A program made the translations under genes and the position numbers. Below, piece after piece: positions 1 through 22,636 of a DNA stretch of 64,000 nt. The stretch comes from a virus: IMG/VR virus record IMGVR_UViG_3300010885_010784, positions 6,081 to 70,080 of that record; one strand, given 5' to 3'. The notes under the pieces are model-generated. The model saw only the letters and a program-made list of their open reading frames with translations, ran no database searches and was not told where the DNA came from. Every line of letters starts with the position of its first letter. Position 1 is the first letter of the stretch.

Positions 1-140
1 TAAACTACCAGAGCGAATACTTCACTAGCATTTGGAGTGGAGTAACTGTTACATTCCCACTTAGAGAGTTGCCAACAAACGAAGAGTATGTTGAAGCGTT
101 CAGGGTTGCTCTTGAAGAGAAACGGAAGGCTAGGGCTTAG
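1..140 (+). CDS. hypothetical protein, 5'-truncated by window edge
   Basis: Open frame from nt 3 (NYQSEYFTSIW...KRKARA) to TAG 138-140, followed by a terminator. Confidence 0.6.
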   Translation, partial: NYQSEYFTSIWSGVTVTFPLRELPTNEEYVEAFRVALEEKRKARA

Positions 141-153
141 GCTCTAGTTTTTT
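130..153 (+). terminator. intrinsic terminator
   Basis: CTAGGGC-TTAG-GCTCTAG hairpin followed by T6. Confidence 0.7.
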
Positions 154-176
154 GCGCAAAAATCCAGGCTAAGATA

Positions 177-202
177 AATGTCAGTGGTCCCCTGTATAAT
201 AG
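177..202 (+). promoter_or_regulatory. ATGTC-box/TATAAT phage promoter
   Basis: AATGTCAGTGGTCCCCTGTATAATAG; ATG lies 6 nt after TATAAT. Confidence 0.8.
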
Positions 203-206
203 AACT

Positions 207-332
207 ATGAAAGATGAACAAGCAGAAGAAATCCTAGAAGCATTACAAGACTACTACGCAAATCCCCAAGACTACAGCATTACGGACTTGGAAGAAATTT
301 TCCAAGATAGAGACCCATTCGAGTTTCTATAA
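207..332 (+). CDS. small acidic leaderless protein (41 aa)
   Basis: MKDEQAEEILEALQDYYANPQDYSITDLEEIFQDRDPFEFL; not in ORF track; starts at predicted +1. Confidence 0.7.
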   Translation: MKDEQAEEILEALQDYYANPQDYSITDLEEIFQDRDPFEFL

Positions 333-356
333 TGTCGGTGGTATCCCTTATAATAG
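331..356 (+). promoter_or_regulatory. ATGTC-box/TATAAT phage promoter
   Basis: AATGTCGGTGGTATCCCTTATAATAG. Confidence 0.8.
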
Positions 357-381
357 AACTACACAAACAAGAAAGAAGAAA

Positions 382-864
382 ATGGAAAACGAAAACCAGA
401 CCCCAGAAATCCTAGAAATCACAGGCGACCTAGTAGCAGTATCAAGCGAACACCCTGTATTGCTACACTACAAAAAGCAGATTGAAGACTTACAGGCACA
501 GGTAGAGCGAACCAATACTCTCGTTGCCGATAAAGACGCTACTATCTACCGCTTGCGTGATAAGTATCGCACAGCAGAATACAAGTTAGAAGAAGTCCTA
601 AAAGGCTTGCTTGATGATGAAGAGATTGAGTTAGAACACGCTAAGACCATTGCGGAAATCTTTGACGGCATTACACTAACTAAGCAGATTACCATTCAAT
701 ACGACATTACTGCTACCGCCACTTTGGAAGTGCCTTATGGTGCTGACGCTGATGATGTTGCGAGTTCTTGTTATGTTGAGCGTGTTGAGTTCTACACCGA
801 CTTTGAAGATGCCGAAGTCTTGGAGAGCGAACACGACACTAATGATTGGCGTGATGTGTCTTAG
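382..864 (+). CDS. acidic early hypothetical protein with N-terminal coiled coil
   Basis: 160-aa ORF with purine-rich RBS, downstream of promoter. Confidence 0.8.
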   Translation: MENENQTPEILEITGDLVAVSSEHPVLLHYKKQIEDLQAQVERTNTLVADKDATIYRLRDKYRTAEYKLEEVLKGLLDDEEIELEHAKTIAEIFDGITLTKQITIQYDITATATLEVPYGADADDVASSCYVERVEFYTDFEDAEVLESEHDTNDWRDVS

Positions 865-887
865 AGTTCCCTTTCTTTCTCTAAGAC

Positions 888-914
888 TAACCTGAGCAAG
901 TTATAAAACTGCTC
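888..914 (+). ncRNA. conserved H-type pseudoknot element, copy 1
   Basis: TAAC-CTGAGCAA-GTTA-TAAAAC-TGCTC; P1 TAAC/GTTA, loop GAGCA pairs with TGCTC. Confidence 0.7.
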
Positions 915-923
915 ACCTTTACA

Positions 924-1040
924 AGCCAGTAGCGATTGTCTGCAGATGTGTCGGCTCTGGTTCTCTGTGTGGAGATTCACACGGCGTTGGTAGTGAGGGC
1001 GATAGTTGCGAGACTACGCTGAAACACGAAAAACTACCGC
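924..1040 (+). ncRNA. candidate multi-hairpin structured RNA
   Basis: Stems AGCCAG/CTGGTT, CTGTGTGG/TCACACGG and GGTAGT/ACTACC enclosing a GCGA-tetraloop hairpin; no credible ORF. Confidence 0.4.
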
Positions 1041-1095
1041 TTCAAATTTCTGCGCCCCGAAATGTTACAGTTGTGTTACGAAATGGCATTTGCTA

Positions 1096-1126
1096 TTTAC
1101 AATGTCCGTGGCTACCTGTATAATAG
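1096..1126 (+). promoter_or_regulatory. promoter TTTACA-N17-TATAAT with ATGTC box in spacer
   Basis: TTTACAATGTCCGTGGCTACCTGTATAATAG. Confidence 0.8.
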
Positions 1127-1202
1127 ATACATACAGCAAGACAGCAATAAGAAGCAAGACAAAAATCATTTACGAAGTGGAAAAAAATTTCCCAGAAAAT
1201 GC

Positions 1203-1231
1203 TTGACTTATGAGTTGTCTTCCTGTATAAT
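1203..1231 (+). promoter_or_regulatory. canonical housekeeping-sigma promoter
   Basis: TTGACT-N17-TATAAT. Confidence 0.8.
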
Positions 1232-1294
1232 AGAAGTATCAACAAAAGTTGGTATAAAACAGCAACACAACCCTTCGGGAGAAAAGAGATACAA

Positions 1295-1456
1295 ATGCCA
1301 GAAATCAAGGTAGGCGACCGCTACGAGACCAAGACTAACAAGTTTGTTGGTGTCGTTCAGGAAATCGCACAGAACAAGAACGGCTCATTCCGTGTTCGTT
1401 TGGACATTGACGGAAAAGCACACTGGACTTCGGCTCAGGGAACTGTCCTAGCCTAA
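1295..1456 (+). CDS. small beta-rich (SH3/KOW-like) protein, 53 aa
   Basis: MPEIKVGDRYETKTNKFVGVVQEIAQNKNGSFRVRLDIDGKAHWTSAQGTVLA; RBS GAAAAGAG; not in ORF track. Confidence 0.75.
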   Translation: MPEIKVGDRYETKTNKFVGVVQEIAQNKNGSFRVRLDIDGKAHWTSAQGTVLA

Positions 1457-1467
1457 ATCTTATAAGG

Positions 1468-1500
1468 CAGACCTGAGTATGTCTGGCAAAATAACTGCTC
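1468..1500 (+). ncRNA. conserved pseudoknot element, copy 2
   Basis: CAGAC-CTGAGTAT-GTCTG-GCAAAATAAC-TGCTC. Confidence 0.7.
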
Positions 1501-1513
1501 ACCCCAAAAACTA

Positions 1514-1539
1514 AATGTCGGTGGTCTCCGCTATAATAG
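1514..1539 (+). promoter_or_regulatory. ATGTC-box/TATAAT phage promoter
   Basis: AATGTCGGTGGTCTCCGCTATAATAG. Confidence 0.8.
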
Positions 1540-1584
1540 ACCTTGTAAGAAACAAAACCCTACTAACAAAGAAAAGAGATAACT

Positions 1585-2037
1585 ATGGCAAGAGCCATTT
1601 CAGTAAAAATCCCAACAGGCAAAGTCATTGAGATGATTGAGCAGAAGATTACTCAAATCAACGAAGACATTGCTACCTACCCTGCTCGCAAGGCACAATA
1701 CAAGGCAGACCTAGAAGCCTACACCCAATCGGTTGTTCGTCTTCTAACTGACCTGCTAAACACTCGGGGAACTGAGTTGCTTTCTAACGAAGACAGCAAC
1801 GAGAACATTCGTGTTAGCACCAACTACAACAACTCTGTGGAAATCACAATCGGTAGAGAACTAACTGCCGAGTTGGTAAAGCCAAAAGAGCCAGAGAACC
1901 CAGAGCCAAACGGCTACTATGGTCGTGTCTATGGTTCTAAAAAGGCAGAGTTGGAAAAGACACTCAAACTACTTCGTATGAGTGAGCAGGAAACAATCAC
2001 TTCGTCTGCTTACAACAGCGTTTTGGAACTGCTGTAA
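1585..2037 (+). CDS. early hypothetical protein
   Basis: 150-aa ORF, RBS GAAAAGAG, between promoter and pseudoknot/terminator. Confidence 0.85.
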   Translation: MARAISVKIPTGKVIEMIEQKITQINEDIATYPARKAQYKADLEAYTQSVVRLLTDLLNTRGTELLSNEDSNENIRVSTNYNNSVEITIGRELTAELVKPKEPENPEPNGYYGRVYGSKKAELEKTLKLLRMSEQETITSSAYNSVLELL

Positions 2038-2057
2038 AACCATAGGCTTACGCCTAA

Positions 2058-2084
2058 ACACCTGAGCAAGTGTCTAAACTGCTT
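2058..2084 (+). ncRNA. conserved pseudoknot element, copy 3
   Basis: ACAC-CTGAGCAA-GTGT-CTAAAC-TGCTT. Confidence 0.7.
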
Positions 2085-2128
2085 CCTGAATTGGGGTAGC
2101 GACTAGACAGGTAAAATAATTTCGCTAA

Positions 2129-2158
2129 TCTTCCTGTCTTCGGGCAGGGAGATTTTTT
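2129..2158 (+). terminator. intrinsic terminator (UUCG loop)
   Basis: TTCCTGTC-TTCG-GGCAGGGA followed by T6. Confidence 0.8.
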
Positions 2159-2226
2159 GCGCAAAAATCCTGCGCCCCGATTTATAACAGTTTAGTTACG
2201 AACCCTATTTATTTTTGCCTAGACTA

Positions 2227-2257
2227 TTTACAATGTCGGTGGGTAGGTGTATAATAG
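2227..2257 (+). promoter_or_regulatory. promoter TTTACA-N17-TATAAT with ATGTC box
   Basis: TTTACAATGTCGGTGGGTAGGTGTATAATAG. Confidence 0.8.
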
Positions 2258-2295
2258 GACTATCAACAAAAAACTACTAATGAAAGGTGTGTCTT

Positions 2296-3315
2296 ATGGC
2301 TCACGAACTAGAAATAAATAACGAAACAGGCGAAGCGTCTTTTGCTTCTCTACGCCAACCTGCTTGGCACAAACTCGGCACTGTGTTTGAAGAAGAAGTA
2401 AATACCGCAGAAATGCTAAAACTGGCAAAACTAGACGGCTGGAATGTTCGTCTTGAAGATGTCGCAATCCCTACTGGTTTTGAGAGCGACAAGTCTTACT
2501 CGTTCGTATCTCGCACCAATCCATTCAACGCAGACCAGACAGACATTCTTGGTGTCGTTGGTGAGCGTTATGTTCCATTACAGAATGAAGACTTGTTCTC
2601 GTTTGGTGATAACCTGCTAGACGGCGGTGGTCGCTGGGAGACTGCTGGCTCTATCAAGGGTGGTCGTCAAGTGTTCGGCTCTATCGCATTGCGAGACGGC
2701 ATTACACTAGACCCTAATGGTCGTGCCGATAAGATTGATAACTATCTTCTAATCAACACTTCTCACGACGGCTCTATCGCTATTCAGGCAAGTATCACGC
2801 CTGTTCGTGTTGTGTGTGCTAACACTCTCAACCTTGCTCTATCTTCATTCAAGGGTAAGTCTGCTTCTAAGCAGTCATTCAAAATCCGCCACACTTCAAC
2901 TGCCGAAGGTAAAATCGCAGTTGCTCGTGAAGCGTTAGGTTTGGCTTCTAAGTATCTTGATGAGTTTTCTGTTATGGCTAACGCTATGATTGAAAAGGAA
3001 ATCACTAAGGCTGACTTTGATAAGATTGTCGCTCTTGCTTACCCTGCCCCTGAAAAAGACAGCAAGGGTTCATTCAAGAAACACGACAGCAAAGTTGATT
3101 TGCTAAACGCCATTTATGTCGGTCAATACAACGACACCATTTCGGGAACTGCTTGGGGAGCATACAACGCTCTAACCGAACGCCTAGACTGGTATCGCTC
3201 GGCTCGTGGTGGTTCAAACGAGAGCATTTACGCAAGTGCTTCTGGCTTTGACCCTGTGATGAACGCAGAGAAGAACCGCCTAATGAAGATTGTTCAATCA
3301 GTCGTAATGGCTTAG
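2296..3315 (+). CDS. DUF932 / phage-plasmid-like protein (TIGR03299 type)
   Basis: MAHEL..PAWHKLG, WETAGSIKGGRQVF, NTSHDGS, PVRVVCANTL and GTAWGAYNALTE motifs; RBS GAAAGG favours ATG 2296. Confidence 0.9.
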   Translation: MAHELEINNETGEASFASLRQPAWHKLGTVFEEEVNTAEMLKLAKLDGWNVRLEDVAIPTGFESDKSYSFVSRTNPFNADQTDILGVVGERYVPLQNEDLFSFGDNLLDGGGRWETAGSIKGGRQVFGSIALRDGITLDPNGRADKIDNYLLINTSHDGSIAIQASITPVRVVCANTLNLALSSFKGKSASKQSFKIRHTSTAEGKIAVAREALGLASKYLDEFSVMANAMIEKEITKADFDKIVALAYPAPEKDSKGSFKKHDSKVDLLNAIYVGQYNDTISGTAWGAYNALTERLDWYRSARGGSNESIYASASGFDPVMNAEKNRLMKIVQSVVMA

Positions 3316-3327
3316 TCCATTCCAAAT

Positions 3328-3354
3328 AATCCTGAGTAAGATTTCAAACTGCTC
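3328..3354 (+). ncRNA. conserved pseudoknot element, copy 4
   Basis: AATC-CTGAGTAA-GATT-TCAAAC-TGCTC, ending 4 nt before tRNA-Glu. Confidence 0.7.
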
Positions 3355-3358
3355 ACTT

Positions 3359-3433
3359 GCTCCCATAGTTTAGTGGTTAGAACGCCAGGTTTTCATCCTG
3401 GTGGCGAGAGTTCGATTCTCTCTGGGAGTGCCA
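3359..3433 (+). tRNA. tRNA-Glu(UUC)
   Basis: Acceptor GCTCCCA/TGGGAGT, anticodon arm CCAGG-TTTTCAT-CCTGG, TTCGA T-loop, encoded CCA. Confidence 0.93.
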
Positions 3434-3525
3434 AATTTTTGCGCAAATTTTCGCCATCATTAATAGCCATGCTAACTATAATAATCTAATTACGAACACC
3501 AAAATCTTTTCCCCGAAATTGCCTA

Positions 3526-3556
3526 TTTACAATGTCGTAGGTATCCTGTATAATAG
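3526..3556 (+). promoter_or_regulatory. promoter TTTACA-N17-TATAAT with ATGTC box
   Basis: TTTACAATGTCGTAGGTATCCTGTATAATAG. Confidence 0.8.
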
Positions 3557-3584
3557 ATACTATAACCCAAGAGAAAGAGATACA

Positions 3585-4016
3585 ATGACAGACTATCCTG
3601 ACCGCTATTCACTACGCACCAAAGGCACTATCGTTCACTTGATAGATGTTGAGAAGGCTACTGCTCTAATCAAACAGCGTTTCAACAATCAAGACGCAGA
3701 CATTACCGCCGAAAGAATGGCAATCGTAAATGGCAAGAATGGTCTTGCTACTGTTCTTGACGAAGGCGTTGGCTGGTTCGCAGACAAGGACGGCAAGTTG
3801 CCTATTAACTATTGGGGCAAGAATGGAAACAACGGCTACCTAGACATCACCGTTGAAGAGTTGTATCCACTAATCAGTGATGAAACTATTGACCTTGCTG
3901 ACCATGTTCGTATCTTTGGCGACCGCCTAGAAACAAACCTATCCACTTGGCAATACTACGCCAAAGGCTATCCACAGGACAAGATGTCGGTGGTTCCTGC
4001 TACAATGGTATCCTAA
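3585..4016 (+). CDS. early hypothetical protein
   Basis: Start moved to ATG 3585 (MTDYPDRY) after RBS GAAAGAG; the track start runs through the promoter. Confidence 0.8.
   Translation: MTDYPDRYSLRTKGTIVHLIDVEKATALIKQRFNNQDADITAERMAIVNGKNGLATVLDEGVGWFADKDGKLPINYWGKNGNNGYLDITVEELYPLISDETIDLADHVRIFGDRLETNLSTWQYYAKGYPQDKMSVVPATMVS
3983..4008 (+). promoter_or_regulatory. ATGTC-box promoter variant inside upstream CDS
   Basis: GATGTCGGTGGTTCCTGCTACAATGG. Confidence 0.65.
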
Positions 4017-4034
4017 CAGAAAGAGACAAACCCT

Positions 4035-4262
4035 ATGAAAAAATACTATGTAAAAGTCCAAGTCAATTATGACGGAGACATTGAAGCAAACTCACCAGAA
4101 GAAGCCGAAGAACTTGCTTGGCATTCTTATTATGGCGACAACGCTACTCTAATCTACGACAGCGTTGAGAGCATTGATGTAGAAGAGTATGACCACTGCG
4201 AAGAGTGCGACAATCCAGAAGACGAATGCGAATGCGAAGAAGAAGAGAGTGAAGACGAATGA
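4035..4262 (+). CDS. small very acidic protein (IEAxSxEEAEExA motif, Cys/Glu tail)
   Basis: 75 aa; shares motif with 5493..5699. Confidence 0.8.
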   Translation: MKKYYVKVQVNYDGDIEANSPEEAEELAWHSYYGDNATLIYDSVESIDVEEYDHCEECDNPEDECECEEEESEDE

Positions 4263-4414
4263 CCCAACTTGAAAGCCTAAAAGCAGAACGCAAAGCCATT
4301 GAAAACGATTTCAAGAAGTTTGATGGCAGACTAAATGATTGGACGCACGACCTTTTGTTGAGCCGTATGGAAATGCTAGATAGTATGATTAGCATTGAAG
4401 AATACAATGCCTAA
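4259..4414 (+). CDS. small hypothetical protein (51 aa)
   Basis: MTQLESLKAERKAIEND...; ATGA overlap with upstream stop. Confidence 0.65.
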   Translation: MTQLESLKAERKAIENDFKKFDGRLNDWTHDLLLSRMEMLDSMISIEEYNA

Positions 4415-4501
4415 AAAGGAGAAATGTGAACACACTTTCATTTGTGATTATTGCATCAATTGTGGTGCTTATTATATTTCTTATGCAGTAAAGGAGCAGC
4501 A

Positions 4502-4741
4502 ATGACTAGAACATTTAGAGCACAGATTACATGGGACTTTGAGTTTGAGGAAGATGGCTACACCGAGAGTGAGCGTGAGTATCTTGAAGAACAACTTGAC
4601 GAAGGAGAGACCCTTGAACCACGCACGGAAGAGCAAATGATAAACTATGCTCATAGTGAACTACTGGATGCATTGTATAACAGTATAAAGTACAATGACC
4701 TTTATCAAATGATAGATGTAGTGGAAGTAAATGAAAAGTAA
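4502..4741 (+). CDS. small acidic hypothetical protein
   Basis: MTRTFRAQITWDFEFEEDG...; RBS AAGGAG. Confidence 0.75.
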   Translation: MTRTFRAQITWDFEFEEDGYTESEREYLEEQLDEGETLEPRTEEQMINYAHSELLDALYNSIKYNDLYQMIDVVEVNEK

Positions 4742-4868
4742 TAAAGAAACTATCTTGGAACTCATTGATTCATTCATGGAGATTCCAGATGTGGACAGCC
4801 TTCCTACAACGACTATTCTAAATTTGTTGAGGCTAAGAATTGTTGACCCTTACTTCTTTCAGGAGTAG
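4731..4868 (+). CDS. small hypothetical protein (45 aa)
   Basis: MKSNKETILELIDSFMEIPD...; coupled to upstream ORF. Confidence 0.55.
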   Translation: MKSNKETILELIDSFMEIPDVDSLPTTTILNLLRLRIVDPYFFQE

Positions 4869-4966
4869 GGCTTCAATTTCTGCGCCGCAAAACATTATGT
4901 CAAGTAACCATGCTAAACATCAGAACCCGATTACGAAGAGGTAAAAATTTCCCCAGGTTTTGGGTA

Positions 4967-4997
4967 TTTACAATGTCAGTGGTATCGGTTATAATAG
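4967..4997 (+). promoter_or_regulatory. promoter TTTACA-N17-TATAAT with ATGTC box
   Basis: TTTACAATGTCAGTGGTATCGGTTATAATAG; ATG 6 nt after -10. Confidence 0.8.
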
Positions 4998-5001
4998 GTA
5001 C

Positions 5002-5232
5002 ATGACAATAAAATATGTAGAAAAATCAACAAGAGTATCTGATGTATCGTACTGGGATGAATTGTATCATTCTGATGTGGCTACCGTTTACGAAGCCTCT
5101 AACTACCGTGACTACTACCGAGTAAAGACTAGTAAGACTACTAAGTATTTCAAAGGTGAGAGTGCTTGGTCTGCCGTGCAACGCTATGTTGTAGACGCAG
5201 GTGACTTTGGTGGCTGGGGTATCTTCCGATGA
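5002..5232 (+). CDS. leaderless hypothetical protein
   Basis: MTIKYVEK...KTTKYFKGESAWSAVQRY. Confidence 0.75.
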   Translation: MTIKYVEKSTRVSDVSYWDELYHSDVATVYEASNYRDYYRVKTSKTTKYFKGESAWSAVQRYVVDAGDFGGWGIFR

Positions 5233-5447
5233 ACATCAATCCTAAAGCAATTAGTGATACAACTATCCCTATCCACGACTTAGTACATGGTGAGTTGAAG
5301 AGCCTTATACTTGCAGCAGAAGAGCAAGTGGAAGCGTCGGATGAAGACCTTGCTAACTATTGGAATGGAAGGTTAGACGCATATGCTGAATTATATAAAC
5401 TAATATATGATTTGATATTTATGCGAGAAGACCTTGACAAACAGTAA
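5229..5447 (+). CDS. hypothetical protein
   Basis: 72 aa; ATGA overlap. Confidence 0.7.
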   Translation: MNINPKAISDTTIPIHDLVHGELKSLILAAEEQVEASDEDLANYWNGRLDAYAELYKLIYDLIFMREDLDKQ

Positions 5448-5462
5448 CCCATACTGTATAAT
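5434..5462 (+). promoter_or_regulatory. consensus housekeeping-sigma promoter
   Basis: TTGACA-N17-TATAAT. Confidence 0.85.
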
Positions 5463-5492
5463 TGATATATAACCCTTAGAGAAAGAGAATCA

Positions 5493-5699
5493 ATGGCAAC
5501 ATTTGATGTAACCCTATCCTTTCACTTTGATACCGAGTATCAGGTAGAAGCAGATAGTTATGAAGAAGCAGAAGAAAAAGCAATGGCAATGGGTCAAGAG
5601 TGGAAACCTTATTCATCTGAATTAGGATATACTCACGACTGGTATTCAGTAGACATTGAAAACTGTTTTACTAACGATGAGTTGGATGAAGATGAGTGA
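5493..5699 (+). CDS. small very acidic protein (VEAxSxEEAEExA motif)
   Basis: 68 aa; paralogous motif to 4035..4262. Confidence 0.8.
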   Translation: MATFDVTLSFHFDTEYQVEADSYEEAEEKAMAMGQEWKPYSSELGYTHDWYSVDIENCFTNDELDEDE

Positions 5700-5865
5700 G
5701 TGCGACTGCGAGAAGGTTGTTTGTCCTAAACATCATGGAGCATTTGATTGCACACCCTTCTGTGACATTTGTGAAGGTAACACAGAATACTGCACTACCC
5801 ACGATGAATGGGAAGCAGAACAAGCAAAGACTTATCTAGCACAGTATGGAGAAACATATGAGTGA
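5692..5865 (+). CDS. small Cys/His-rich (zinc-binding) protein
   Basis: MSECDCEKVVCPKHHGAFDCTPFCDICEG. Confidence 0.7.
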   Translation: MSECDCEKVVCPKHHGAFDCTPFCDICEGNTEYCTTHDEWEAEQAKTYLAQYGETYE

Positions 5866-6097
5866 TTTCGTTACTGAAAAAGAATTCGATGATGCCATAG
5901 ACCTTCTATATTCATTCGTTGATAAGTTTGTTAATGATGATTCAGAAGACTTCTCTATGCAACTAACAGAACTAACTAATCTAGCATACATGCAGGGATG
6001 GCATAAAGCCATTGACATGGTATTAGATGTCAGTGGTAACATGTATAATGGATTCGATAGCCCAACCCTACAAGAACTGGAGCAACGCATTGTCTAG
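5858..6097 (+). CDS. hypothetical protein
   Basis: MSDFVTEKEF...; RBS GGAG. Confidence 0.7.
   Translation: MSDFVTEKEFDDAIDLLYSFVDKFVNDDSEDFSMQLTELTNLAYMQGWHKAIDMVLDVSGNMYNGFDSPTLQELEQRIV
6026..6051 (+). promoter_or_regulatory. ATGTC-box promoter inside CDS
   Basis: GATGTCAGTGGTAACATGTATAATGG. Confidence 0.7.
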
Positions 6098-6098
6098 T

Positions 6099-6443
6099 AT
6101 GACTAACGAACAGTGGGAGAAAACCTATCTCCCTATTACAAATCCTATTACAGATGAAGGCATTTCATTTGAGACCTACGGTGAAGAAGTTGAGTACGTC
6201 GCTTCACATGACGAGCATAACGTATGGACAGAACTAGACGGAGACAATGGTGTATACATTGTCAATGGGTTCCACTATGTGAATCGTATCCAGTACTACG
6301 TTACAGAAGTACCGTGGACCGAAGACGTTGAGATTGTAGTCTGTGAGTACATCGACTGCGATTGCTACGACGGTGAAGTGGACCCTAAGAACAACTGCGA
6401 CGAATGCGGTGGCACTGGAACTAAGACTGTGTGGGGTGACTAA
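6099..6443 (+). CDS. hypothetical protein with C-terminal CxxCxGxG zinc motif
   Basis: MTNEQWEKTYLPI...FETYGEE...VNRIQYYVTEVPW...CDECGGTG. Confidence 0.8.
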   Translation: MTNEQWEKTYLPITNPITDEGISFETYGEEVEYVASHDEHNVWTELDGDNGVYIVNGFHYVNRIQYYVTEVPWTEDVEIVVCEYIDCDCYDGEVDPKNNCDECGGTGTKTVWGD

Positions 6444-6823
6444 TGGTAAGAGAATGGAATGAGAACATGCAAAAAGACTGGGACCTTAACATCTTCTTTA
6501 GAGAAGAGTGGGATGAAGAGAACGGCACTACATGGGATAACGTTATAACTATCAATCCTATTGTATATACATGGGACGGCGACCGCTCTGACAACTGGTA
6601 CACTGACATCTTGTACACTACCACGTTTGCAGAGGCACGGTATCTGAGGAGCCAGTATCCAGAGAACGAGTACGGTATGGACTGGACAGATAGCCTACAG
6701 GGCTTCCTAGAGATTGCTCCGCCTAGGTTGAAGTCATTGCTTGGGACCCTGCCTGGTGCGGATGAGACTGATGAGATTAATAGACTTGGTGGGTTGAGAG
6801 CACTCCCTACCAATGACGGATAG
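6443..6823 (+). CDS. hypothetical protein
   Basis: 126 aa; TAATG coupling. Confidence 0.75.
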   Translation: MVREWNENMQKDWDLNIFFREEWDEENGTTWDNVITINPIVYTWDGDRSDNWYTDILYTTTFAEARYLRSQYPENEYGMDWTDSLQGFLEIAPPRLKSLLGTLPGADETDEINRLGGLRALPTNDG

Positions 6824-6873
6824 GTTAGGGGTTTCCGAGTCCGTCACCGTGGGGAAGGTAGGTAGATTGCTAC

Positions 6874-6902
6874 TTGCTTTCCCCACAACATTTTGGTATA
6901 AT
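6874..6902 (+). promoter_or_regulatory. housekeeping-sigma promoter
   Basis: TTGCTT-N17-TATAAT with TG extension. Confidence 0.7.
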
Positions 6903-6925
6903 AGAACATAAGAGAATAGAGAAAA

Positions 6926-7126
6926 GTGAAGAAGAGTAATGAAGAAAAATTTGCCACAGTTGTAAGTAATCTAATTAGTGATTTGAGATTTGACTTAGAC
7001 TTAGCAGGAAAGTATTTGGCTTGGTATTTACCGAATGTCGCATTCAGGCGATTTATGGAGATAGCAGAAACAGCCAAAGAAGAACGAGAAGGAAAGAAAC
7101 ATGAGCGAGACAACATTAGAGAGTAA
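6926..7126 (+). CDS. hypothetical protein
   Basis: GTG start, 66 aa. Confidence 0.7.
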   Translation: MKKSNEEKFATVVSNLISDLRFDLDLAGKYLAWYLPNVAFRRFMEIAETAKEEREGKKHERDNIRE

Positions 7127-7367
7127 GGCAGACATTCTGTCAGAACTATGGTTAGGCTATAAGAACGACGACAACTTTGAAGATTTCTTTGCCTACAATG
7201 ACCTAGGGCTACCACTAGCCTATGCTGTAGCAAATGGCATAGTGAAGGGAACAGAGGTGTCTACTAAGTTTATCAATGAAACCTTTATGTTGCTCCTAGC
7301 CAGCCTAGAAGTAGAAGACGAAGGGTTCAGCACACTTGACGACATATTCATTTCAGCACCACGTTAA
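7101..7367 (+). CDS. hypothetical protein
   Basis: 88 aa; FFAYNDLGLPLAY motif. Confidence 0.8.
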   Translation: MSETTLESKADILSELWLGYKNDDNFEDFFAYNDLGLPLAYAVANGIVKGTEVSTKFINETFMLLLASLEVEDEGFSTLDDIFISAPR

Positions 7368-7392
7368 ATGTCGGTGGTAGGGAGTATAATAG
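7367..7392 (+). promoter_or_regulatory. ATGTC-box/TATAAT phage promoter
   Basis: AATGTCGGTGGTAGGGAGTATAATAG; ATG 6 nt after -10. Confidence 0.8.
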
Positions 7393-7396
7393 AACT

Positions 7397-7558
7397 ATGG
7401 ACAAAATAACATACGAAGTATCACGCTCACTAATCGAACACAACTACGACATTGTTCTCACAGACGAGCAATGGCAGGAAGTCAGCGACACCCTGTATAA
7501 CGCATTAGATAGTTATACTTGGCTTGACTTGCCTAGCATAATCAAAGACCTTGATTAG
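7397..7558 (+). CDS. small acidic leaderless protein (53 aa)
   Basis: MDKITYEVSRSLIEHNYDIVLTDEQWQEVSD...; not in ORF track. Confidence 0.7.
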   Translation: MDKITYEVSRSLIEHNYDIVLTDEQWQEVSDTLYNALDSYTWLDLPSIIKDLD

Positions 7559-7566
7559 ATAAAGAG

Positions 7567-7602
7567 ATATGCCTCTGCCTGGTGCAGGGGTGTATTTTTT
7601 TT
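7567..7602 (+). terminator. intrinsic terminator ending the early region
   Basis: ATATGCCTCTGC-CTGGT-GCAGGGGTGTAT followed by T-tract. Confidence 0.8.
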
Positions 7603-7698
7603 GCGCAGAAAATTTATAACAATCCCATAACGCCTATTGACAAATTTGAAAAAATGTGATAGACAAATCCCAAATAGGATATTTAACTATGTAACTAT

Positions 7699-8500
7699 AT
7701 TACGAAGGGGCATATTTTTTCCTGGAACTTTTATGTTTATTTTATTTAACATATCCAGACATTACGAACCAAAAAATTTTTTTCCCGAAAGTTTGTTTAT
7801 ATATATAAAGATAGATAGACATTACGAAGGACCTAAATTTTTCCTGGAATATTTAAATGTCAGAGGTATGTGGTATATGTATTACTAGGGGTATTACGAA
7901 CACTTCTTTATATACCCCGAAGGGCTGGCGGTAGCCAGGGTATTACGAAGCCTATGATTATTTCCCCTAGTAGTATATATAACACATGTCTTGATATGGG
8001 ATTACGAACGTGTATATATTTTCCATATTTTTATATATATTTATTGATAATTATTCTCATTAACATATATAAATGTTTATTTTATTTAATAAAACATTAC
8101 ATTTTTATAACGAATTTGTGGCTATGGGAATATCACAATTTTATAACGATATGGGTATTTGGGGAAATGATTACGAAGCCTATTAGTGATTTGCTCCATT
8201 ACACACTATCTTATTTAAAATCCTTATCCTTAATGAAAACCATTATCATCAGTAAGATTAATCTGTGGATAAACCTGTGGATAACTGTGTAAAAATCCAG
8301 GGTATCAGAAGGAAATGGCTATCCCAAATAGGTGTTTTGGGGTGTTAGCCTTTATCCCCCATATGCGTTTCTCTCTAATCAGAGATATGCTGTAAGGCTT
8401 AGGAGAGGATATAAGGTCATATCTCTTGAAGTGTATTTGCATTAGGTGTATTCTTTCTACTAGGGATTACGAAGCATCTTTTGTATGCCCCGAAAATTTT
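7699..8500 (+). repeat. iteron-like ATTACGAA direct-repeat array in AT-rich non-coding DNA
   Basis: ATTACGAA at 7699, 7761, 7821, 7893, 7942, 8001, 8170 and 8466, mostly followed about 14 nt later by T-tract-CC(C/T)(G). Confidence 0.8.
8264..8284 (-). promoter_or_regulatory. two perfect DnaA boxes (TTATCCACA)
   Basis: TGTGGATAA at 8264-8272 and 8276-8284; degenerate third box TGTGTAAAA at 8286. Confidence 0.75.
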
Positions 8501-8501
8501 G

Positions 8502-8708
8502 TTAATAAACTGAGTTTGTTATTAGAGCAACGAGTTCGTGATAGGTAGACTCTGATATGTAGTTCATTGTGCCATAGTCATGTAGCAGTGCTATGATACG
8601 TTCACGTTCTTTATCTATATTAATGTTTACGAACTCATCAATAGCCCTCACATCTTCTTTAGTGAATGTGCTATCAAGTACAAGCATCTTGTTCTCTATT
8701 TTAATCAT
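8502..8708 (-). CDS. small protein, ERERI family
   Basis: DKERERIIALL. Confidence 0.7.
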   Translation of the reverse strand: MIKIENKMLVLDSTFTKEDVRAIDEFVNINIDKERERIIALLHDYGTMNYISESTYHELVALITNSVY

Positions 8709-8911
8709 CTATACCCCCTGAGAAGTTCTAGGATATCCATCATAAATACATATCTTGTGTGTGATGCTTCATCATCCCAAGAGACATCCTTTTCCAACTC
8801 TAAACCTTTGTTAGAAAGAATATTGAGAATACGCTCACGCTCTTCCTTGACACCAGTTCTATAAGCATTGTCAATTGCACTTAGAATGTTTAGTCCTTCA
8901 TCATGTATCAT
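8705..8911 (-). CDS. small protein, ERERI family
   Basis: GVKEERERILNIL; ATGA overlaps. Confidence 0.7.
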   Translation of the reverse strand: MIHDEGLNILSAIDNAYRTGVKEERERILNILSNKGLELEKDVSWDDEASHTRYVFMMDILELLRGYR

Positions 8912-9501
8912 TCTGCATTACCTATATCTCTGAAACGCTTTGGTGGATGTTGTTCATCTCCACCTGGAGTCCATAGCACGTCATTCTCATTGTAGAATCT
9001 AGCCATTACGAAGAACAAGTCTGATAGCCTATTTAGGTATTGTGCTACTAGAGGATTTACTTCTCGTCCAGTTACATTCCATACCCTGCGTTCTGCTCTT
9101 CGAACAATTGTTCTAGCAACATGGAACAAGGCAGAAGTCTGGTTGCCTCCAGGCATTACGAACGACCTTAAAGGTTCCAGAGTTGAGTTGTATAAGTCTA
9201 TATCTTTCTCAAGACGACTAACCATATACTCAGTGATTCTGAGTCTACCATCATTAGGAGCATATGGAGTACATAGGTCTGCACCTACATCAAATAGTTC
9301 ATTTTGAATTCTATCAAGAATGTTCTTTCCATTATCCCCAAATGTGCCGAAAGCCATAATCATTCCAATAGCAGCGTTTGCTTCATCTACTGTAGAATAT
9401 GCTTCAATTAGTGGGTCAGTCTTAGATACCCTGGAATTATCTCCCAAAGCAGTTGTTCCATTATCACCAGTCTTGGTGTATATTTTACTTAAGATTACCA
9501 T
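8908..9501 (-). CDS. pduO: PduO-type ATP:cob(I)alamin adenosyltransferase
   Basis: KIYTKTGDxGTT, TVDEANAAIG, IQNELFDVGADL, ARTIVRRAER and YLNRLSDLFFVMAR signatures. Confidence 0.93.
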   Translation of the reverse strand: MVILSKIYTKTGDNGTTALGDNSRVSKTDPLIEAYSTVDEANAAIGMIMAFGTFGDNGKNILDRIQNELFDVGADLCTPYAPNDGRLRITEYMVSRLEKDIDLYNSTLEPLRSFVMPGGNQTSALFHVARTIVRRAERRVWNVTGREVNPLVAQYLNRLSDLFFVMARFYNENDVLWTPGGDEQHPPKRFRDIGNAE

Positions 9502-9664
9502 ACTTGCCTTTCAATAGCGATATTGCACCTCTAAGGTTGACACCACTCTTATCGTGTAACATTTCTTCTAGGATGTGAATGATACGCTCTCTCTCACGCT
9601 GTTCACCAACCTGTATCCAATGTCTCTTTACGACATTAAATTTTGCTCGTTCTATGAATCCCAT
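9485..9664 (-). CDS. small protein, ERERI family (59 aa)
   Basis: MGFIERAKF...GEQRERERIIHIL; not in ORF track. Confidence 0.65.
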   Translation of the reverse strand: MGFIERAKFNVVKRHWIQVGEQRERERIIHILEEMLHDKSGVNLRGAISLLKGKYGNLK

Positions 9665-9891
9665 CCTACTACCTCTTTCTCTGGCTCATGGTTTTTAATT
9701 GCTTCAATAATTTCTTTACGAGTGTATGGGTCTTCTTTCAACCAATCCACATCGTGTATATATCTATTAACTTTATCAATGATTTGTTTGTGTTGCTCGT
9801 CCATACCTGCTTCGAAGCCATGCTCCCAACCAAGGTCATAACCTTGCTGTACTAGACGCAAACGCCATTTAAATATCTTAGGCAACTGCAT
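9652..9891 (-). CDS. hypothetical protein
   Basis: Likely start MQLPKIFKW at 9891 after RBS GAGGAG. Confidence 0.7.
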   Translation of the reverse strand: MQLPKIFKWRLRLVQQGYDLGWEHGFEAGMDEQHKQIIDKVNRYIHDVDWLKEDPYTRKEIIEAIKNHEPEKEVVGWDS

Positions 9892-10381
9892 AATTCTCCT
9901 CGTGTGCAACCCAGTAATACTTGCATGGTTCTTTACGATTAGGGCAACAAGGCTGGTTATCTCCATCGCTCAATGCACTATAGAACTCAAAGTAATAAAT
10001 TGGGTCTTTCTTGTATAGGTTTGCTTTGTGTGTAGCATTAACCTTAGCCATCTTAACAGAATCATTAAACCACTCAGGGTCATTAAGACCCCAATACTTA
10101 CCCTCGGACTTATACAAAGCCTTAAGGTTCTCTAGGTTCTTGTCTGTCTTAATACCACGCTCGTCTGCTTCGCCTACCATAGACATAATGTAATTCCATA
10201 GCACTGCTTCACTACCACGCCACATCTTCACGGCTGGATGGTTACGCCACCCTGCTCGTGGGTCTGGGTTGCCTAGGACTTTTAGAATCTGGTAGCCTTC
10301 TAGGATTTGCTTGTTAAGACGCTTGTTGTCTAGTGCTTGTGCAGACATAGTAAAGTCTTTATATGGTAAAAAGGTTTGCAT
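9878..10381 (-). CDS. pyrimidine-dimer DNA glycosylase (DenV) / MSMEG_6728-like protein
   Basis: MQTFLPY..F..SA..LD.KRL.KQ..E..QIL...WRNHPAVKMWRG signature. Confidence 0.85.
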   Translation of the reverse strand: MQTFLPYKDFTMSAQALDNKRLNKQILEGYQILKVLGNPDPRAGWRNHPAVKMWRGSEAVLWNYIMSMVGEADERGIKTDKNLENLKALYKSEGKYWGLNDPEWFNDSVKMAKVNATHKANLYKKDPIYYFEFYSALSDGDNQPCCPNRKEPCKYYWVAHEENYAVA

Positions 10382-10438
10382 ACGTTCTCTCTCGTTTAAT
10401 GGACCTATAGTCAATTATACAGTAAATTCGCTTGCTTG

Positions 10439-10636
10439 TCAAGCGTTGAACTCTATATTTACCGCCGAACTTTCAACCAATTCACGCAGAACTTTATACT
10501 GTATAAATCCGAGGTTGCTTCGCTTCTGCTCCGCTTCCAGGATTGCGAACAATCTCTCTCGTTCGTTCATAATACCAATAAGGTATGAGGTAAGGTCAGT
10601 GACCCCCTGTGCATCTAAATCTTTTAATTTTCCCAT
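10439..10636 (-). CDS. small leaderless protein, ERER family
   Basis: MGKLKDLDAQ...GIMNERERLFAIL; TTGACA-N17-TATACT ends 6 nt upstream. Confidence 0.7.
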   Translation of the reverse strand: MGKLKDLDAQGVTDLTSYLIGIMNERERLFAILEAEQKRSNLGFIQYKVLRELVESSAVNIEFNA

Positions 10637-10687
10637 GTATCTAGTATAAGGCACACAAAGGTCTTTGTCAAGTGCTATAATAGAAAT

Positions 10688-10882
10688 ATGACAGACAAAT
10701 ATCGCTACATTATTTACCCTGAACGCACCTACGTTGTGGATGTCGATGGGGATTCCGTTGAAGTCCAGGGACAGGACATTGTTAATATTATTCCTGATAT
10801 GCTTCGCAAGAAGTACATTGAGGCTTACTTTGGATACGAGAGTATCTCATTTGACAATACACAGGAAGGTTTGGTAGAATAG
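10688..10882 (+). CDS. leaderless hypothetical protein
   Basis: TGCTATAAT 6 nt upstream of ATG; divergent from 10636. Confidence 0.7.
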   Translation: MTDKYRYIIYPERTYVVDVDGDSVEVQGQDIVNIIPDMLRKKYIEAYFGYESISFDNTQEGLVE

Positions 10883-10883
10883 T

Positions 10884-10997
10884 ATGGCTGCAAAAAAGGC
10901 ATCAACACGCAACAGCAATCGTCAGAACGGTAAGGCTTCTAAGAAGTCACCGAAGATTTTTGACCCTGCAAAGCGTAGATTAGTAAAGGTTAGTTAA
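10884..10997 (+). CDS. very basic 37-aa peptide
   Basis: MAAKKASTRNSNRQNGKASKKSPKIFDPAKRRLVKVS. Confidence 0.6.
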   Translation: MAAKKASTRNSNRQNGKASKKSPKIFDPAKRRLVKVS

Positions 10998-11174
10998 ATG
11001 GATAGAAAGACTCGTAGAAACAACGAGCGTGTTATTAGTACAATCAAAAAGAAGGCTGTTAAGGATACCGAGACTTGGATTCTTAGCCTATCGTCACCAC
11101 CCACAAAATCTGAAGTCCTTGCATTCCAGGCTGGATATGTTTATGGCATGAACCGTGGGACAAGCAATGCATGA
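10998..11174 (+). CDS. small hypothetical protein (58 aa)
   Basis: MDRKTRRNNERV...AFQAGYVYGMNRG; abuts upstream stop. Confidence 0.6.
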   Translation: MDRKTRRNNERVISTIKKKAVKDTETWILSLSSPPTKSEVLAFQAGYVYGMNRGTSNA

Positions 11175-11325
11175 GTTTAAAAATCCTTATTACGAAGGAC
11201 CAGATTGTGTTTGTTGCAATCACCTTAAAGAGGATGTAGTAAAGAGCATTGTTGCAATGCTGAGAGAACAAGACTCAGTTTGTTCAGACTGGGTTATAGC
11301 ACTTATAGAAAAGGATTACGAATAG
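11167..11325 (+). CDS. small hypothetical protein (52 aa)
   Basis: MHEFKNPYYEGPDCVCCNHL... Confidence 0.55.
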   Translation: MHEFKNPYYEGPDCVCCNHLKEDVVKSIVAMLREQDSVCSDWVIALIEKDYE

Positions 11326-11326
11326 T

Positions 11327-11458
11327 ATGTGGGAAATTATTAATATAGCAATGGTAGTTGTTGGAATAGCATTGCTAATGCTTGTATCATGGGCAGTAGA
11401 CAAAGACAAGAAGAGCAAGTCGGAAGACTGGTTCACCCTAGACGACGACGACTTTTAA
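11327..11458 (+). CDS. small single-TM membrane protein (43 aa)
   Basis: MWEIINIAMVVVGIALLMLVSWAV followed by charged tail. Confidence 0.6.
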   Translation: MWEIINIAMVVVGIALLMLVSWAVDKDKKSKSEDWFTLDDDDF

Positions 11459-11610
11459 TGCATAAGTGTGGCTGGTGTATAACTGGGCATCACGAATCCT
11501 GTAAGCCTTCAGTTAGTTATTATGAGAAAACTTGGGTGTGTGAATGTCCTTGTCGTACTCAGGCTCATTCTGAGGATACTGTTCAAGACAGTCATAGCAA
11601 AAGTGAGTAG
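11458..11610 (+). CDS. small Cys/His-rich protein
   Basis: MHKCGWCITGHHESC...CECPC; TAATG coupling. Confidence 0.55.
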   Translation: MHKCGWCITGHHESCKPSVSYYEKTWVCECPCRTQAHSEDTVQDSHSKSE

Positions 11611-11740
11611 GCTTGAAATCAAATGGTTTAGGAATACCACCTAAAACAATTTCATCATTCTTAGCCTTTTCAATCATTTCCATAGTTGGAAATCCATAAA
11701 CGACATCTACCATTGGGTAGGAACAAAGTGGACAATTCAT
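11513..11740 (-). CDS. small zinc-ribbon protein
   Basis: MNCPLC..MVDVVYGFP....IVLGG....PTHFCYDC; leaderless after TATAAT. Confidence 0.7.
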   Translation of the reverse strand: MNCPLCSYPMVDVVYGFPTMEMIEKAKNDEIVLGGIPKPFDFKPTHFCYDCLEQYPQNEPEYDKDIHTPKFSHNN

Positions 11741-11746
11741 ACTACT

Positions 11747-11793
11747 ATTATACACTACATGCTTTACAATGTCCATGGTCTCTGGTATAATAG
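11747..11793. promoter_or_regulatory. overlapping divergent promoters sharing the ATGTC box
   Basis: + strand TTTACAATGTCCATGGTCTCTGGTATAATAG; - strand TGGACA-N17-TATAAT. Confidence 0.7.
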
Positions 11794-11797
11794 GTAT

Positions 11798-12184
11798 ATG
11801 ATTATTACAGACATTGACGATACCGTTTTAGAACACATGAGTTCTACCCCGATTAAAAAGACCATTGATTATATTAATTCACTTAATACTAAGGTGATTG
11901 TAATTAGTGGAAGAAGCCGAAGCATGAGAGCAGAGACAGAGAAGGCTCTCAAAGAGGCTGGACTAAAGTATAGTAGTCTTCTTCTTAATCCTTATGACTA
12001 TAGACTTACCAATAAGTGGAAGGCTGAGTGTGCTGAGAAACTTAGTGACGCTACCCTCGCTATCGACGACAATGCAGGAGCCAGGTCTGCCTACACAAAG
12101 GCTGGTATTAAGGCTATTCATCCTAACGAAGTTCCAGACATGGAAAAGTTCTGGTCTGTCTTTGAATCTAACAGCGGATACTAA
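11798..12184 (+). CDS. HAD-superfamily phosphatase (PNKP/PseT 3'-phosphatase-like)
   Basis: DIDDT motif I, SGR motif II, K motif III, IDD motif IV; leaderless start. Confidence 0.85.
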   Translation: MIITDIDDTVLEHMSSTPIKKTIDYINSLNTKVIVISGRSRSMRAETEKALKEAGLKYSSLLLNPYDYRLTNKWKAECAEKLSDATLAIDDNAGARSAYTKAGIKAIHPNEVPDMEKFWSVFESNSGY

Positions 12185-12203
12185 ATAGTACTTATAATTA
12201 AGT

Positions 12204-12416
12204 ATGGAAGACATTCAGGATATTGAAACCAGAGTAGACCAACTCTACAGCAAGATTGATGATATCAATGCTGAGTTGTATTCTCTTGGTGGCGAGGAAG
12301 AAAGATTCGAAATATTCGAAAGACTTCGTGAATTGATTTCACAAAAAGAACAAGAAAATGATTTGATTGCTGCAGCCGTGCTTGGCTGGGCTTATGAAGA
12401 ATTAGCCAACGTTTAG
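12204..12416 (+). CDS. small acidic helical protein
   Basis: 70 aa; TATAAT 5 nt upstream. Confidence 0.7.
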   Translation: MEDIQDIETRVDQLYSKIDDINAELYSLGGEEERFEIFERLRELISQKEQENDLIAAAVLGWAYEELANV

Positions 12417-13096
12417 TCGTGGTTAGTTTTTTGTTTTACTAAAGCCAACATTCTTTCTGGAGTTTTTGCAGAATAGTATAGCCAGTAAAGTTCTATGTTC
12501 TTCATTTGATTATGATTAAAGCCAGGGTCGTGTATCTGTGTTTGATGTCCAAGACAATAGATGGTTCCATCATGTCTAATAAACTTACTACCCTTAATGA
12601 TTGTGTGTGCTAATTCAAATGCTGAATCTTCTGCTCCCCATTGCTTAAACTTTTCATCCATACCGCCAACACTCCACCAGGTTTCTGGTGTGCATACCCA
12701 GACTCCACCGTTGGCTTCTGTAAACAACGTATGCTTTAGAATGTTCATATTACTACCAGAATAAATTGACTCACTCATTTGCATATCAAAATATTTACAA
12801 AGTCTATAAGGATTATGAATCATTCCATCTGTTTGGCATTGCTCTATGGCTTCTAGTAAAGGCTTAATTTCTGGTAGTGTATCTGCGTCATTAAGTATAA
12901 TAACGTCACAGTGAGCCTCCTGTGCCCTCTTTACACCATCATTACGACTGGCAGCAGCGTTCCAGAATTCCCCTGGTCTATCTGTATAAAATATTTCAAC
13001 GTCTGGTAAGTTGGTTTGATACCATTGAAGAACCATTTCTAATGGTCTTATTCTGCTTGGAGTTTGTCTCCATGGAATTATCAATCCTATTTTCAT
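12413..13096 (-). CDS. GT-A fold glycosyltransferase (galactosyltransferase-like)
   Basis: IIPWR, SRNDG, DAD and GGMDEKFKQWGAED motifs. Confidence 0.88.
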   Translation of the reverse strand: MKIGLIIPWRQTPSRIRPLEMVLQWYQTNLPDVEIFYTDRPGEFWNAAASRNDGVKRAQEAHCDVIILNDADTLPEIKPLLEAIEQCQTDGMIHNPYRLCKYFDMQMSESIYSGSNMNILKHTLFTEANGGVWVCTPETWWSVGGMDEKFKQWGAEDSAFELAHTIIKGSKFIRHDGTIYCLGHQTQIHDPGFNHNQMKNIELYWLYYSAKTPERMLALVKQKTNHD

Positions 13097-15243: not shown

Positions 15244-15386
15244 TAGTGCTCCTCACAATGCATGATTGCATCGTTCTCTGTTTGATAGTTGTCCCAACAA
15301 TTAGTTGGGGTTAGTGTTATTGTAAATACAATTATACCAATAAGACCTAGTATTGTCAATATGGTTAGTTTAGAATTCTTCGTCAT
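15243..15386 (-). CDS. small N-anchored membrane protein (47 aa)
   Basis: MTKNSKLTILTILGLIGIIVF...CWDNYQTENDAIMHCE; contains TTGACA-N17-TATAAT (15359-15331). Confidence 0.55.
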   Translation of the reverse strand: MTKNSKLTILTILGLIGIIVFTITLTPTNCWDNYQTENDAIMHCEEH

Positions 15387-17085: not shown

Positions 17086-17549
17086 TAGTCTTCCATCTCC
17101 ACTTCTGTTTCTGGCTCTTCCATGCTTGCACGGAGTTGCCAGCAAAACTTTTGTGATGCAGTCTGGCGGTCAGCAAAGAAGTTTGCTAGTCCATACTGCT
17201 TGGCTTCATTAGCCAGGTCGCTTGCTACGACCAAGGCTTCAATGTGTAATTCAATTGACTCGTAGAGGTCAGCAACCATTGGCTCTGGCTCTCCAACAAT
17301 GATTGGCTCTGATACAGTTGACATGTCAAAGAAGTCTGTTAGTCTGTATGGGGCATAAGCCTTGAGCATACGAAGCCACTCTGCGTATTCGTCTGTAGCC
17401 TCGTCATAGTCTTCATAAATCTCTCTAAAGAATTCGTGAAACTGTTTGAAATCATCGGACTCCACGTTCCAGTGGTAGCCATGTGCTTTAAATTTAAGGG
17501 CAATGTTATCTGCTAGTAGCAGTCTCAATGCGGATAGTAGTTGTTCCAT
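17085..17549 (-). CDS. dps: Dps / ferritin-like protein
   Basis: HGYHWNV..F..FHEFF..IYE....DE.AE ferroxidase signature; leaderless. Confidence 0.9.
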   Translation of the reverse strand: MEQLLSALRLLLADNIALKFKAHGYHWNVESDDFKQFHEFFREIYEDYDEATDEYAEWLRMLKAYAPYRLTDFFDMSTVSEPIIVGEPEPMVADLYESIELHIEALVVASDLANEAKQYGLANFFADRQTASQKFCWQLRASMEEPETEVEMED

Positions 17550-21967: not shown

Positions 21968-22008
21968 ATAGCATCATCTCCTTCTATATTTGATTATATC
22001 ATAATCAG

Positions 22009-22080: not shown

Positions 22081-22084
22081 GAAG

Positions 22085-22571: not shown

Positions 22572-22636
22572 ATAAAAACCCTCTCTAGGTCATGTATCAA
22601 TTATACAGTACTAGAGAGGGCTTGTCAAGTATGTTT

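Follow-up and report, generated by a model that had tools for sequence, protein, structure and literature searches.

Which factor reads the conserved ATGTC box that stands in the spacer of a whole series of promoters on a viral contig? The series lies at the start of a window of 64,000 nucleotides, the whole stretch of DNA analysed here, which covers positions 6081-70080 of a linear contig of 70,080 bp (IMG/VR record IMGVR_UViG_3300010885_010784, estimated to be 66% complete). We suggest, with a probability of about 0.7, that the box promoters are sigma-A promoters of the PafBC-dependent (RecA-NDp) class and are read by the PafBC activator of the host. The phage would then carry about 22 copies of a host DNA-damage promoter before the small genes of a rightward, early-type block near the genome end.

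The pattern ATGTCNGTGG-N7-TAYAAT, with up to two mismatches allowed, matched the window 12 times against 0.27 expected, and none of 100 shuffles reached 12. Eleven of these sites are on the + strand, with ATGTC starting at 178, 332, 1102, 1515, 2233, 3532, 3984, 4973, 6027, 7368 and 11769; the twelfth (20862-20884, - strand) reads ATTTC, is without TGTC and was treated as chance. An initial annotation had listed eleven copies and a degenerate further one, and all of them were recovered, the degenerate copy at 7857. Ten more copies were detected in the 6 kb upstream of the window. The total of 22 all lie on the + strand, from position 1224 to position 17849 of the contig. Seven of the 29 rows of the fuzzy contig scan were dropped for this set, six with three mismatches and no TGTC context, plus the - strand ATTTC match.

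The geometry of the copies is rigid, as had been proposed: ATGTC begins 17 nt ahead of the -10 hexamer in every copy, and the spacing to the box is identical in 22/22. TGTC is present in all 22 copies and TGTCRG in 18, TAnnnT is kept in 21, and 19 copies have a perfect TATAAT. The contig has 82 TATAAT hexamers. TGTC stands at -28..-25 before 19 of them, which are all + strand hexamers; the 39 hexamers of the - strand are all without it. The earlier count of five copies with TTTACA at -35 was exact (1096, 2227, 3526, 4967 and 11763), and in the remaining copies of the window no more than 2-3 of 6 positions agree with TTGACA. For the 19 TATAAT copies of the contig, 13 match TTGACA at 2-3 of 6 positions and six at 5 of 6, forming a hybrid subclass. 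A generic sigma-70 scan found only the five TTTACA copies of the class and gave no enrichment overall (24 found, 31 expected).

Where transcription starts is suggested by the downstream genes. In 6/22 copies an ATG lies exactly 7 nt after the hexamer and opens a leaderless open reading frame (ORF) of 41-128 amino acids (aa). These leaderless ATGs fix +1, and therefore the hexamer occupies -12..-7, the box ATGTCRGTGG -29..-20 and TGTCRG -28..-23. Behind a further 12 copies, an ORF of at least 38 aa begins 17-43 nt after +1, preceded by a purine-rich ribosome site. Leaderless messages are typical of actinobacteria. Judged by their sequence context, the box copies are promoters. Those of the window are as follows.

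178..200, + strand: PafBC-type promoter ATGTCAGTGG-N7-TATAAT without a -35; ATG 207 at the predicted +1 opens a leaderless 41-aa ORF.
332..354, + strand: PafBC-type promoter ATGTCGGTGG-N7-TATAAT without a -35; a 160-aa ORF runs from 382, 21 nt past +1.
1096..1124, + strand: hybrid promoter TTTACA + ATGTCCGTGG-N7-TATAAT, with C at -24.
1515..1537, + strand: PafBC-type promoter ATGTCGGTGG-N7-TATAAT before a 150-aa ORF from 1585; box and -10 form a conserved island in the related record G410.
2227..2255, + strand: hybrid promoter TTTACA + ATGTCGGTGG-N7-TATAAT, preceding the DUF932 gene (2296-3312) and kept in G410.
3526..3554, + strand: hybrid promoter TTTACA + ATGTCGTAGG-N7-TATAAT, with T at -23 and A at -22, before a 143-aa ORF from 3585.
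3984..4006, + strand: PafBC-type promoter ATGTCGGTGG-N7-TACAAT within the end of the previous ORF, before a 75-aa ORF from 4035.
4967..4995, + strand: hybrid promoter TTTACA + ATGTCAGTGG-N7-TATAAT; ATG 5002 at the predicted +1 opens a leaderless 76-aa ORF.
6027..6049, + strand: PafBC-type promoter ATGTCAGTGG-N7-TATAAT within the end of the previous ORF; the next ORF starts from 6099-6108.
7368..7390, + strand: PafBC-type promoter ATGTCGGTGG-N7-TATAAT; ATG 7397 at the predicted +1 opens a leaderless 53-aa ORF.
7857..7879, + strand: degenerate copy ATGTCAGAGG-N7-TATATG with three mismatches, within a ~60-nt ATTACGAA repeat array; probably a decayed promoter.
11763..11791, + strand: hybrid promoter TTTACA + ATGTCCATGG-N7-TATAAT, with C at -24 and A at -23; ATG 11798 at +1 opens a leaderless, HAD/phosphatase-like ORF of 128 aa.

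The likeness to PafBC-dependent promoters carries the argument. The consensus for PafBC in vivo given by Mueller et al. 2021 (PMC8635444) is tGTCgg(N10)tA(N3)T, and their cryo-electron microscopy structure has the helix-turn-helix of PafB reading -23 to -28, the '-26 element', in which the GTC triplet hardly varies across the phylum. The paper also describes PafC contacts with sigma-A region 4 and calls such promoters hybrid, having a canonical -10 and no -35. Written as A-TGTCRG-TGG-N7-TAYAAT, the phage motif consists of TGTCRG, ten bases and TAnnnT in the same register, and it shares with the PafBC class the -26 element with GTC at -28..-23, the ten-base spacing, the missing -35 consensus and the occurrence of the motif at recA in the phylum. 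Searched with the literature consensus alone, the window has 8 exact matches where 1.3 are expected, and each is one of the 11 noted sites. A form tTGTCRgtg-8nt-TAnnnT reportedly goes back to Gamulin et al. 2004 or Mueller et al. 2018.

The phage copies also differ from the known RecA-NDp promoters (Mueller et al. 2021, PMC8635444; Schilling et al. 2025, PMC11804915). Co-oriented and about 22 in number, they make up an array before small genes of no known function on an apparently lytic genome, and they add a perfect TATAAT, a near-consensus -35 in six copies and a conserved A at -30 and TGG at -22..-20.

The same motif was detected in bacteria. Within 350 nt upstream of recA it was found exactly in 11/33 sampled Actinomycetota genomes and with at most one mismatch in 19/33 (one locus from an unpublished genome was excluded from the survey). 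The motifs lie 74-111 nt before the RecA domain match, and several read TGTCRGTGG like the phage. For the longer form AATGTCRGTGG-N7-TANNNT, 401 Actinomycetota genomes gave 20 matches and the reversed control gave one, with at most two per genome, which argues for a regulon-type signal and not a repeat. WYL genes were present in 8/8 genomes of one order of small freshwater Actinomycetota, and 4/8 have tandem WYL pairs of ~330-350 codons each, the pafB-pafC arrangement.

In the proposed mechanism, the winged-helix domain of host PafB would read TGTCRG as the '-26 element' and PafC would dock on sigma-A region 4 ('sigma adaptation'). According to Schilling et al. 2025 (PMC11804915), single-stranded DNA (ssDNA) bound to the WYL domains turns PafBC on; the heterodimer becomes active only once ssDNA is bound. 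The small early-type genes would then be switched on or boosted upon activation of host PafBC. As a conjecture, the infection itself could supply the ssDNA, through entering ends, replication or breakdown of host DNA, or earlier damage such as that by ultraviolet (UV) light could do so.

No WYL domain was detected in any of five phage records, the contig and four complete relatives of 112-115 kb. Likewise, 51 small phage ORFs gave no helix-turn-helix (HTH) or other DNA-binding family, even with the threshold relaxed to E<=0.5; most ORFs are of no known fold, and the contig is 66% complete. With neither found in the phage, host PafBC is the simplest reading. The initial annotation had allowed for some other phage activator, for which the same searches gave no candidate, WYL being at 0/5 records and HTH families at none of the 51 ORFs. 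An activator of unrecognised fold, encoded by the phage and acting like MotA/AsiA of T4, would make the likeness to PafBC sites a convergence or mimicry of specificity. Conservation of the box goes past the PafBC core as published, with A at -30 and TGG at -22..-20, most of the small early ORFs belong to no known family, and the canonical TTGACA-N17-TATAAT promoters of the phage could express such a factor first. Nevertheless, the box equals host recA promoters in both sequence and spacing, which is not required of a phage-specific factor, and we consider this explanation quite unlikely.

In T4, MotA and AsiA are both phage-encoded and remodel sigma region 4, and the MotA box is centred near -30. 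As in T4 middle promoters, an activator box replaces the -35, the host primary sigma reads the -10 and a whole gene class is served, a comparison drawn by the authors of PMC8635444. Here, in contrast to T4, no phage factor was found and the box matches the site of a host regulator, centred at -26.

The initial annotation had further proposed that host WhiA, together with a WhiB of the phage, reads the box. Its general idea, that an activator box takes the place of the -35 much as with MotA, agrees with our results, whereas the two named factors do not fit. The phage WhiB is real: the gene at 18579-18866 (- strand) belongs to the WhiB family (Pfam Whib, E 5.9e-13), and GACAT, the reverse complement of the box, is one base off the GACAC of WhiA. 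Nothing links this WhiB to the box. According to PMC10243135, the GACAC that WhiA recognises lies upstream of the -35, can be on either strand and is variably spaced, and WhiB is bound to sigma region 4 in the WhiA/WhiB complex; in the solved complex and the chromatin immunoprecipitation data cited there, both proteins sit upstream of the -35, and spacing and orientation of the motif vary. In the phage, 22/22 copies give GACAT and 0/22 read GTGTC, and the box is fixed at -29..-20, always on one strand, between the -35 position and the -10, in the spacer that polymerase itself covers. The PafBC consensus, moreover, accounts for the entire bipartite motif. The Streptomyces sepX promoter, as described in PMC10243135, resembles the phage promoters in being actinobacterial, in working via sigma-A region 4 and in its asymmetric motif containing GACA, but its element is GACAC upstream of the -35 at variable spacing, while the phage has GACAT fixed in the spacer. 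Activation by WhiA and WhiB therefore appears highly improbable, on both the sequence and the position of the box.

We found the box promoters to be conserved well beyond this contig. An exact-pattern scan of the viral collection gave at least 172 loci; the 80 matches listed fall on 55 contigs, 17 of which have 2-7 exact matches each, always on one strand. The 171 unique sites taken from related viral contigs, a set that must include some chance single matches, have no -35 information (at most 0.16 bit at -35..-32) and show A at -30 (1.15 bit), R at -24 (0.8 bit) and a CA start. All five related records, with DnaE identity of 79% (G410) or 54-55%, have 5-16 co-oriented sites each within ~10 kb, including the variant TTGTCAGTGG. 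The promoter cluster spans the genome ends in the related record with terminal repeats. In G410, box and -10 are conserved islands in 3/3 orthologous intergenic regions and the rest has diverged.

This conservation bears on a further explanation, in which the promoters work without any factor and without a -35, and the box is kept as a shut-off operator, as a PafBC decoy or via a promoter cassette spread by recombination. In the decoy version, the array could soak up PafBC and so blunt the damage or defence response of the host. Promoters with a perfect -10 and no -35 are common in actinobacteria, and 19/22 copies do have a perfect TATAAT; 22 sites multiplied by the phage genome copies could titrate a regulator, and duplication of cassettes is seen in the ~60-nt array at 7690-8030, whose modules are promoter-like and decayed. 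However, the box is kept among the 22 copies while the seven spacer bases adjoining it vary freely, and it is kept in orthologous regions with diverged flanks and at 54-55% DnaE identity. Furthermore, the published structure (PMC8635444) makes an element in this register an activation site. Promoters independent of a factor are thus unlikely to account for the class.

Several points weigh against host PafBC as the reader. The PafBC of the host is itself one that we infer. No cultured system backs the use of PafBC, and the three cultured Streptomyces relatives NootNoot, Wakanda and Blueeyedbeauty are without a promoter cluster (1, 0 and 4 matches, where the control gave 0, 2 and 2). Since the -10 is a perfect TATAAT and 6/22 copies match the -35 at 5 of 6 positions, transcription from some or all copies could be independent of PafBC. 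At -24/-23 or -7, four of the 12 copies in the window are off consensus, and the exact motif stands at only 11 of the 33 recA loci. Conservation in the phage also extends past the bases of the published core, to A at -30/-31 and TGG at -22..-20, and this might mean that another factor reads the box as well or instead. Binding of PafBC to the phage sites, its timing and its purpose are what we infer from DNA sequence.

The gene content and relatives of the phage suggest its host. The phage DNA has a G+C content of 36-47% and encodes replication and repair proteins (a DnaE-type polymerase, DnaB, primase, RecA, a Cas4-like exonuclease and RuvC) along with glycosyltransferases, GroES, Dps/ferritin, a pyrimidine-dimer glycosylase, a cobalamin adenosyltransferase and WhiB. 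Its DnaE is 52-55% identical to DnaE of Streptomyces phages of clusters BK and BE (Stanwilliamsviridae), and the DUF932 gene (2296-3312) has 53% identity to a gene of the BE terminal repeat. The cobalamin adenosyltransferase has its best identity, 56%, to Streptosporangiaceae and other Actinomycetota and ~50% to Proteobacteria. Near-identical DNA is contained in freshwater metagenomes. The WhiB gene, the leaderless genes and the Streptomyces-phage relatives argue for an actinobacterial host, likely one of the freshwater Actinomycetota. Megablast with 8 kb gave no match among cultured phages, and blastn with a 47-nt promoter gave just three chance-level 18-nt matches among them. Contigs of lake metatranscriptomes (four RNA runs), compared with 1-12500, matched in pieces between 377 and 7549 with few beyond, and such contigs show no starts, strand or level and may include DNA carry-over.

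A tyrosine or serine integrase was found in 0/5 phage records, the contig and its relatives. The clade therefore looks lytic, and ordinary prophage-induction logic does not apply. We tentatively propose, and hold it somewhat below even odds, that a whole, apparently lytic clade of freshwater actinophages has made PafBC, the ssDNA-alarm activator of its host, its own early or middle transcription factor, with the array maybe draining PafBC. Single-stranded DNA at the entering genome end, from replication or from host DNA breakdown would activate PafBC near the terminal promoter cluster, and the damage or defence signal of the cell would fire about 20 phage genes together.

To our knowledge, PafBC-dependent promoters are known only as the DNA-damage regulon of the host itself. 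The literature on PafBC or RecA-NDp together with phages, judged by titles and abstracts, gave no account of such promoters on phage genomes; the promoter class is already known, and for its occurrence on phage genomes we found no published description. Rafique et al. 2025 (ACS Infect Dis), cited in PMC12848934, reportedly deals with PafBC and mycobacteriophage resistance and is possibly relevant. If the proposal is true, a virus uses a stress activator of its host instead of a factor of its own, the host is unable to drop the switch without losing its DNA-damage response, and the array may draw PafBC off host repair and defence genes. The timing of phage genes would be tied to ssDNA or UV damage in sunlit lake bacteria. 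About 20 natural, compact PafBC-responsive promoters, graded in design with and without a -35, would also be at hand for tests of sigma adaptation. The motif is also a mark in the sequence by which uncultured phages can be linked to hosts among the actinobacteria.

Genes related to damage and stress are present in the phage, all on the - strand, for pyrimidine-dimer DNA glycosylase (9881-10414), RecA (30709-31719), Dps/ferritin (17088-17549) and cobalamin adenosyltransferase (8911-9501), and a phage of sunlit waters would be well served by them.

Terminal-repeat 'host take-over' gene blocks are known from large lytic phages such as SPO1 and T5. Like these and the direct-terminal-repeat block of Streptomyces cluster BE phages, the phage has many small genes at a genome end, each with its own strong promoter. 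Those blocks differ in having ordinary -35/-10 promoters, and NootNoot, Wakanda and Blueeyedbeauty have no PafBC-type cluster. In the first 14.4 kb of NootNoot, the promoters of the terminal-repeat block carry TTGCGC-like -35 and TGTAGACT -10 elements. TGTCC stands at exactly -28..-24 in 7 of 22 listed TAGACT-type hexamers there; TGTC and its position are shared with the PafBC element, the following RG is not. NootNoot was rejected as a member of the same class, with 4 matches to TGTCRG-N10-TANNNT against 2 for the control. Kinship with the 'stoperators' of mycobacteriophage L5, which also have GGTGG and TGTC, in the opposite order, was considered and dropped once the PafBC match was found.

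A second promoter class accompanies the box promoters. Canonical TTGACA-N17-TATAAT with at most one mismatch was found 18 times in the window against 0.68 expected, 13 times without the box. Eleven of these 13 are on the - strand (10414-39358), ahead of replication and metabolism genes. These promoters and a recurring motif are listed here.

1203-1231, + strand: boxless near-perfect canonical promoter, TTGACT-N17-TATAAT, after the hybrid promoter at 1096..1124 and preceding the ORF at 1295.
5434-5462, + strand: boxless near-perfect canonical promoter of the TTGACA-N17-TATAAT type.
10414-10442, 15331-15359, 22600-22628 and others to 39386, - strand: boxless canonical promoters.
11747-11775, - strand: divergent promoter TGGACA-N17-TATAAT, overlapping the hybrid promoter at 11763..11791.
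150-165, 1040-1056, 2153-2185, 3435-3452, 4876-4892 and 7600-7615: motif TTTTTGCGCAAAAATCC / TTCTGCGCCCCGAAAT, seen by eye.

The last motif recurs between gene ends and the next promoter, often just past a stem-loop. One small gene is preceded by two promoters in tandem at 1096-1231, the first with a box and the second canonical.

The tandem array at 7690-8030 lies in AT-rich non-coding DNA that separates the rightward from the leftward gene blocks. It has a period of ~60 nt and modules of the form ATTACGAA-N9-TTTTTCC(Y)GRAA, with copies also at 3489, 4930, 8170 and 8466. ATTACGAA occurs 14 times in the window, always on the + strand, against 1.7 expected, and the module is also located 30 nt upstream of two TTTACA-type promoters. 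Because the array contains the degenerate box at 7857, it may consist of promoter cassettes that have decayed, serve as an origin or bind another factor.

The phage has four tRNAs, the tRNA-Glu at 3359-3433 and three more at 22008-22331. The tRNA-Glu is situated within the rightward block of small genes, with the DUF932 gene on one side and the next box promoter on the other. At 11747-11791, the reverse complement of the degenerate box ATGTCCATGG is at the same time the TGGACA -35 of the - strand promoter.

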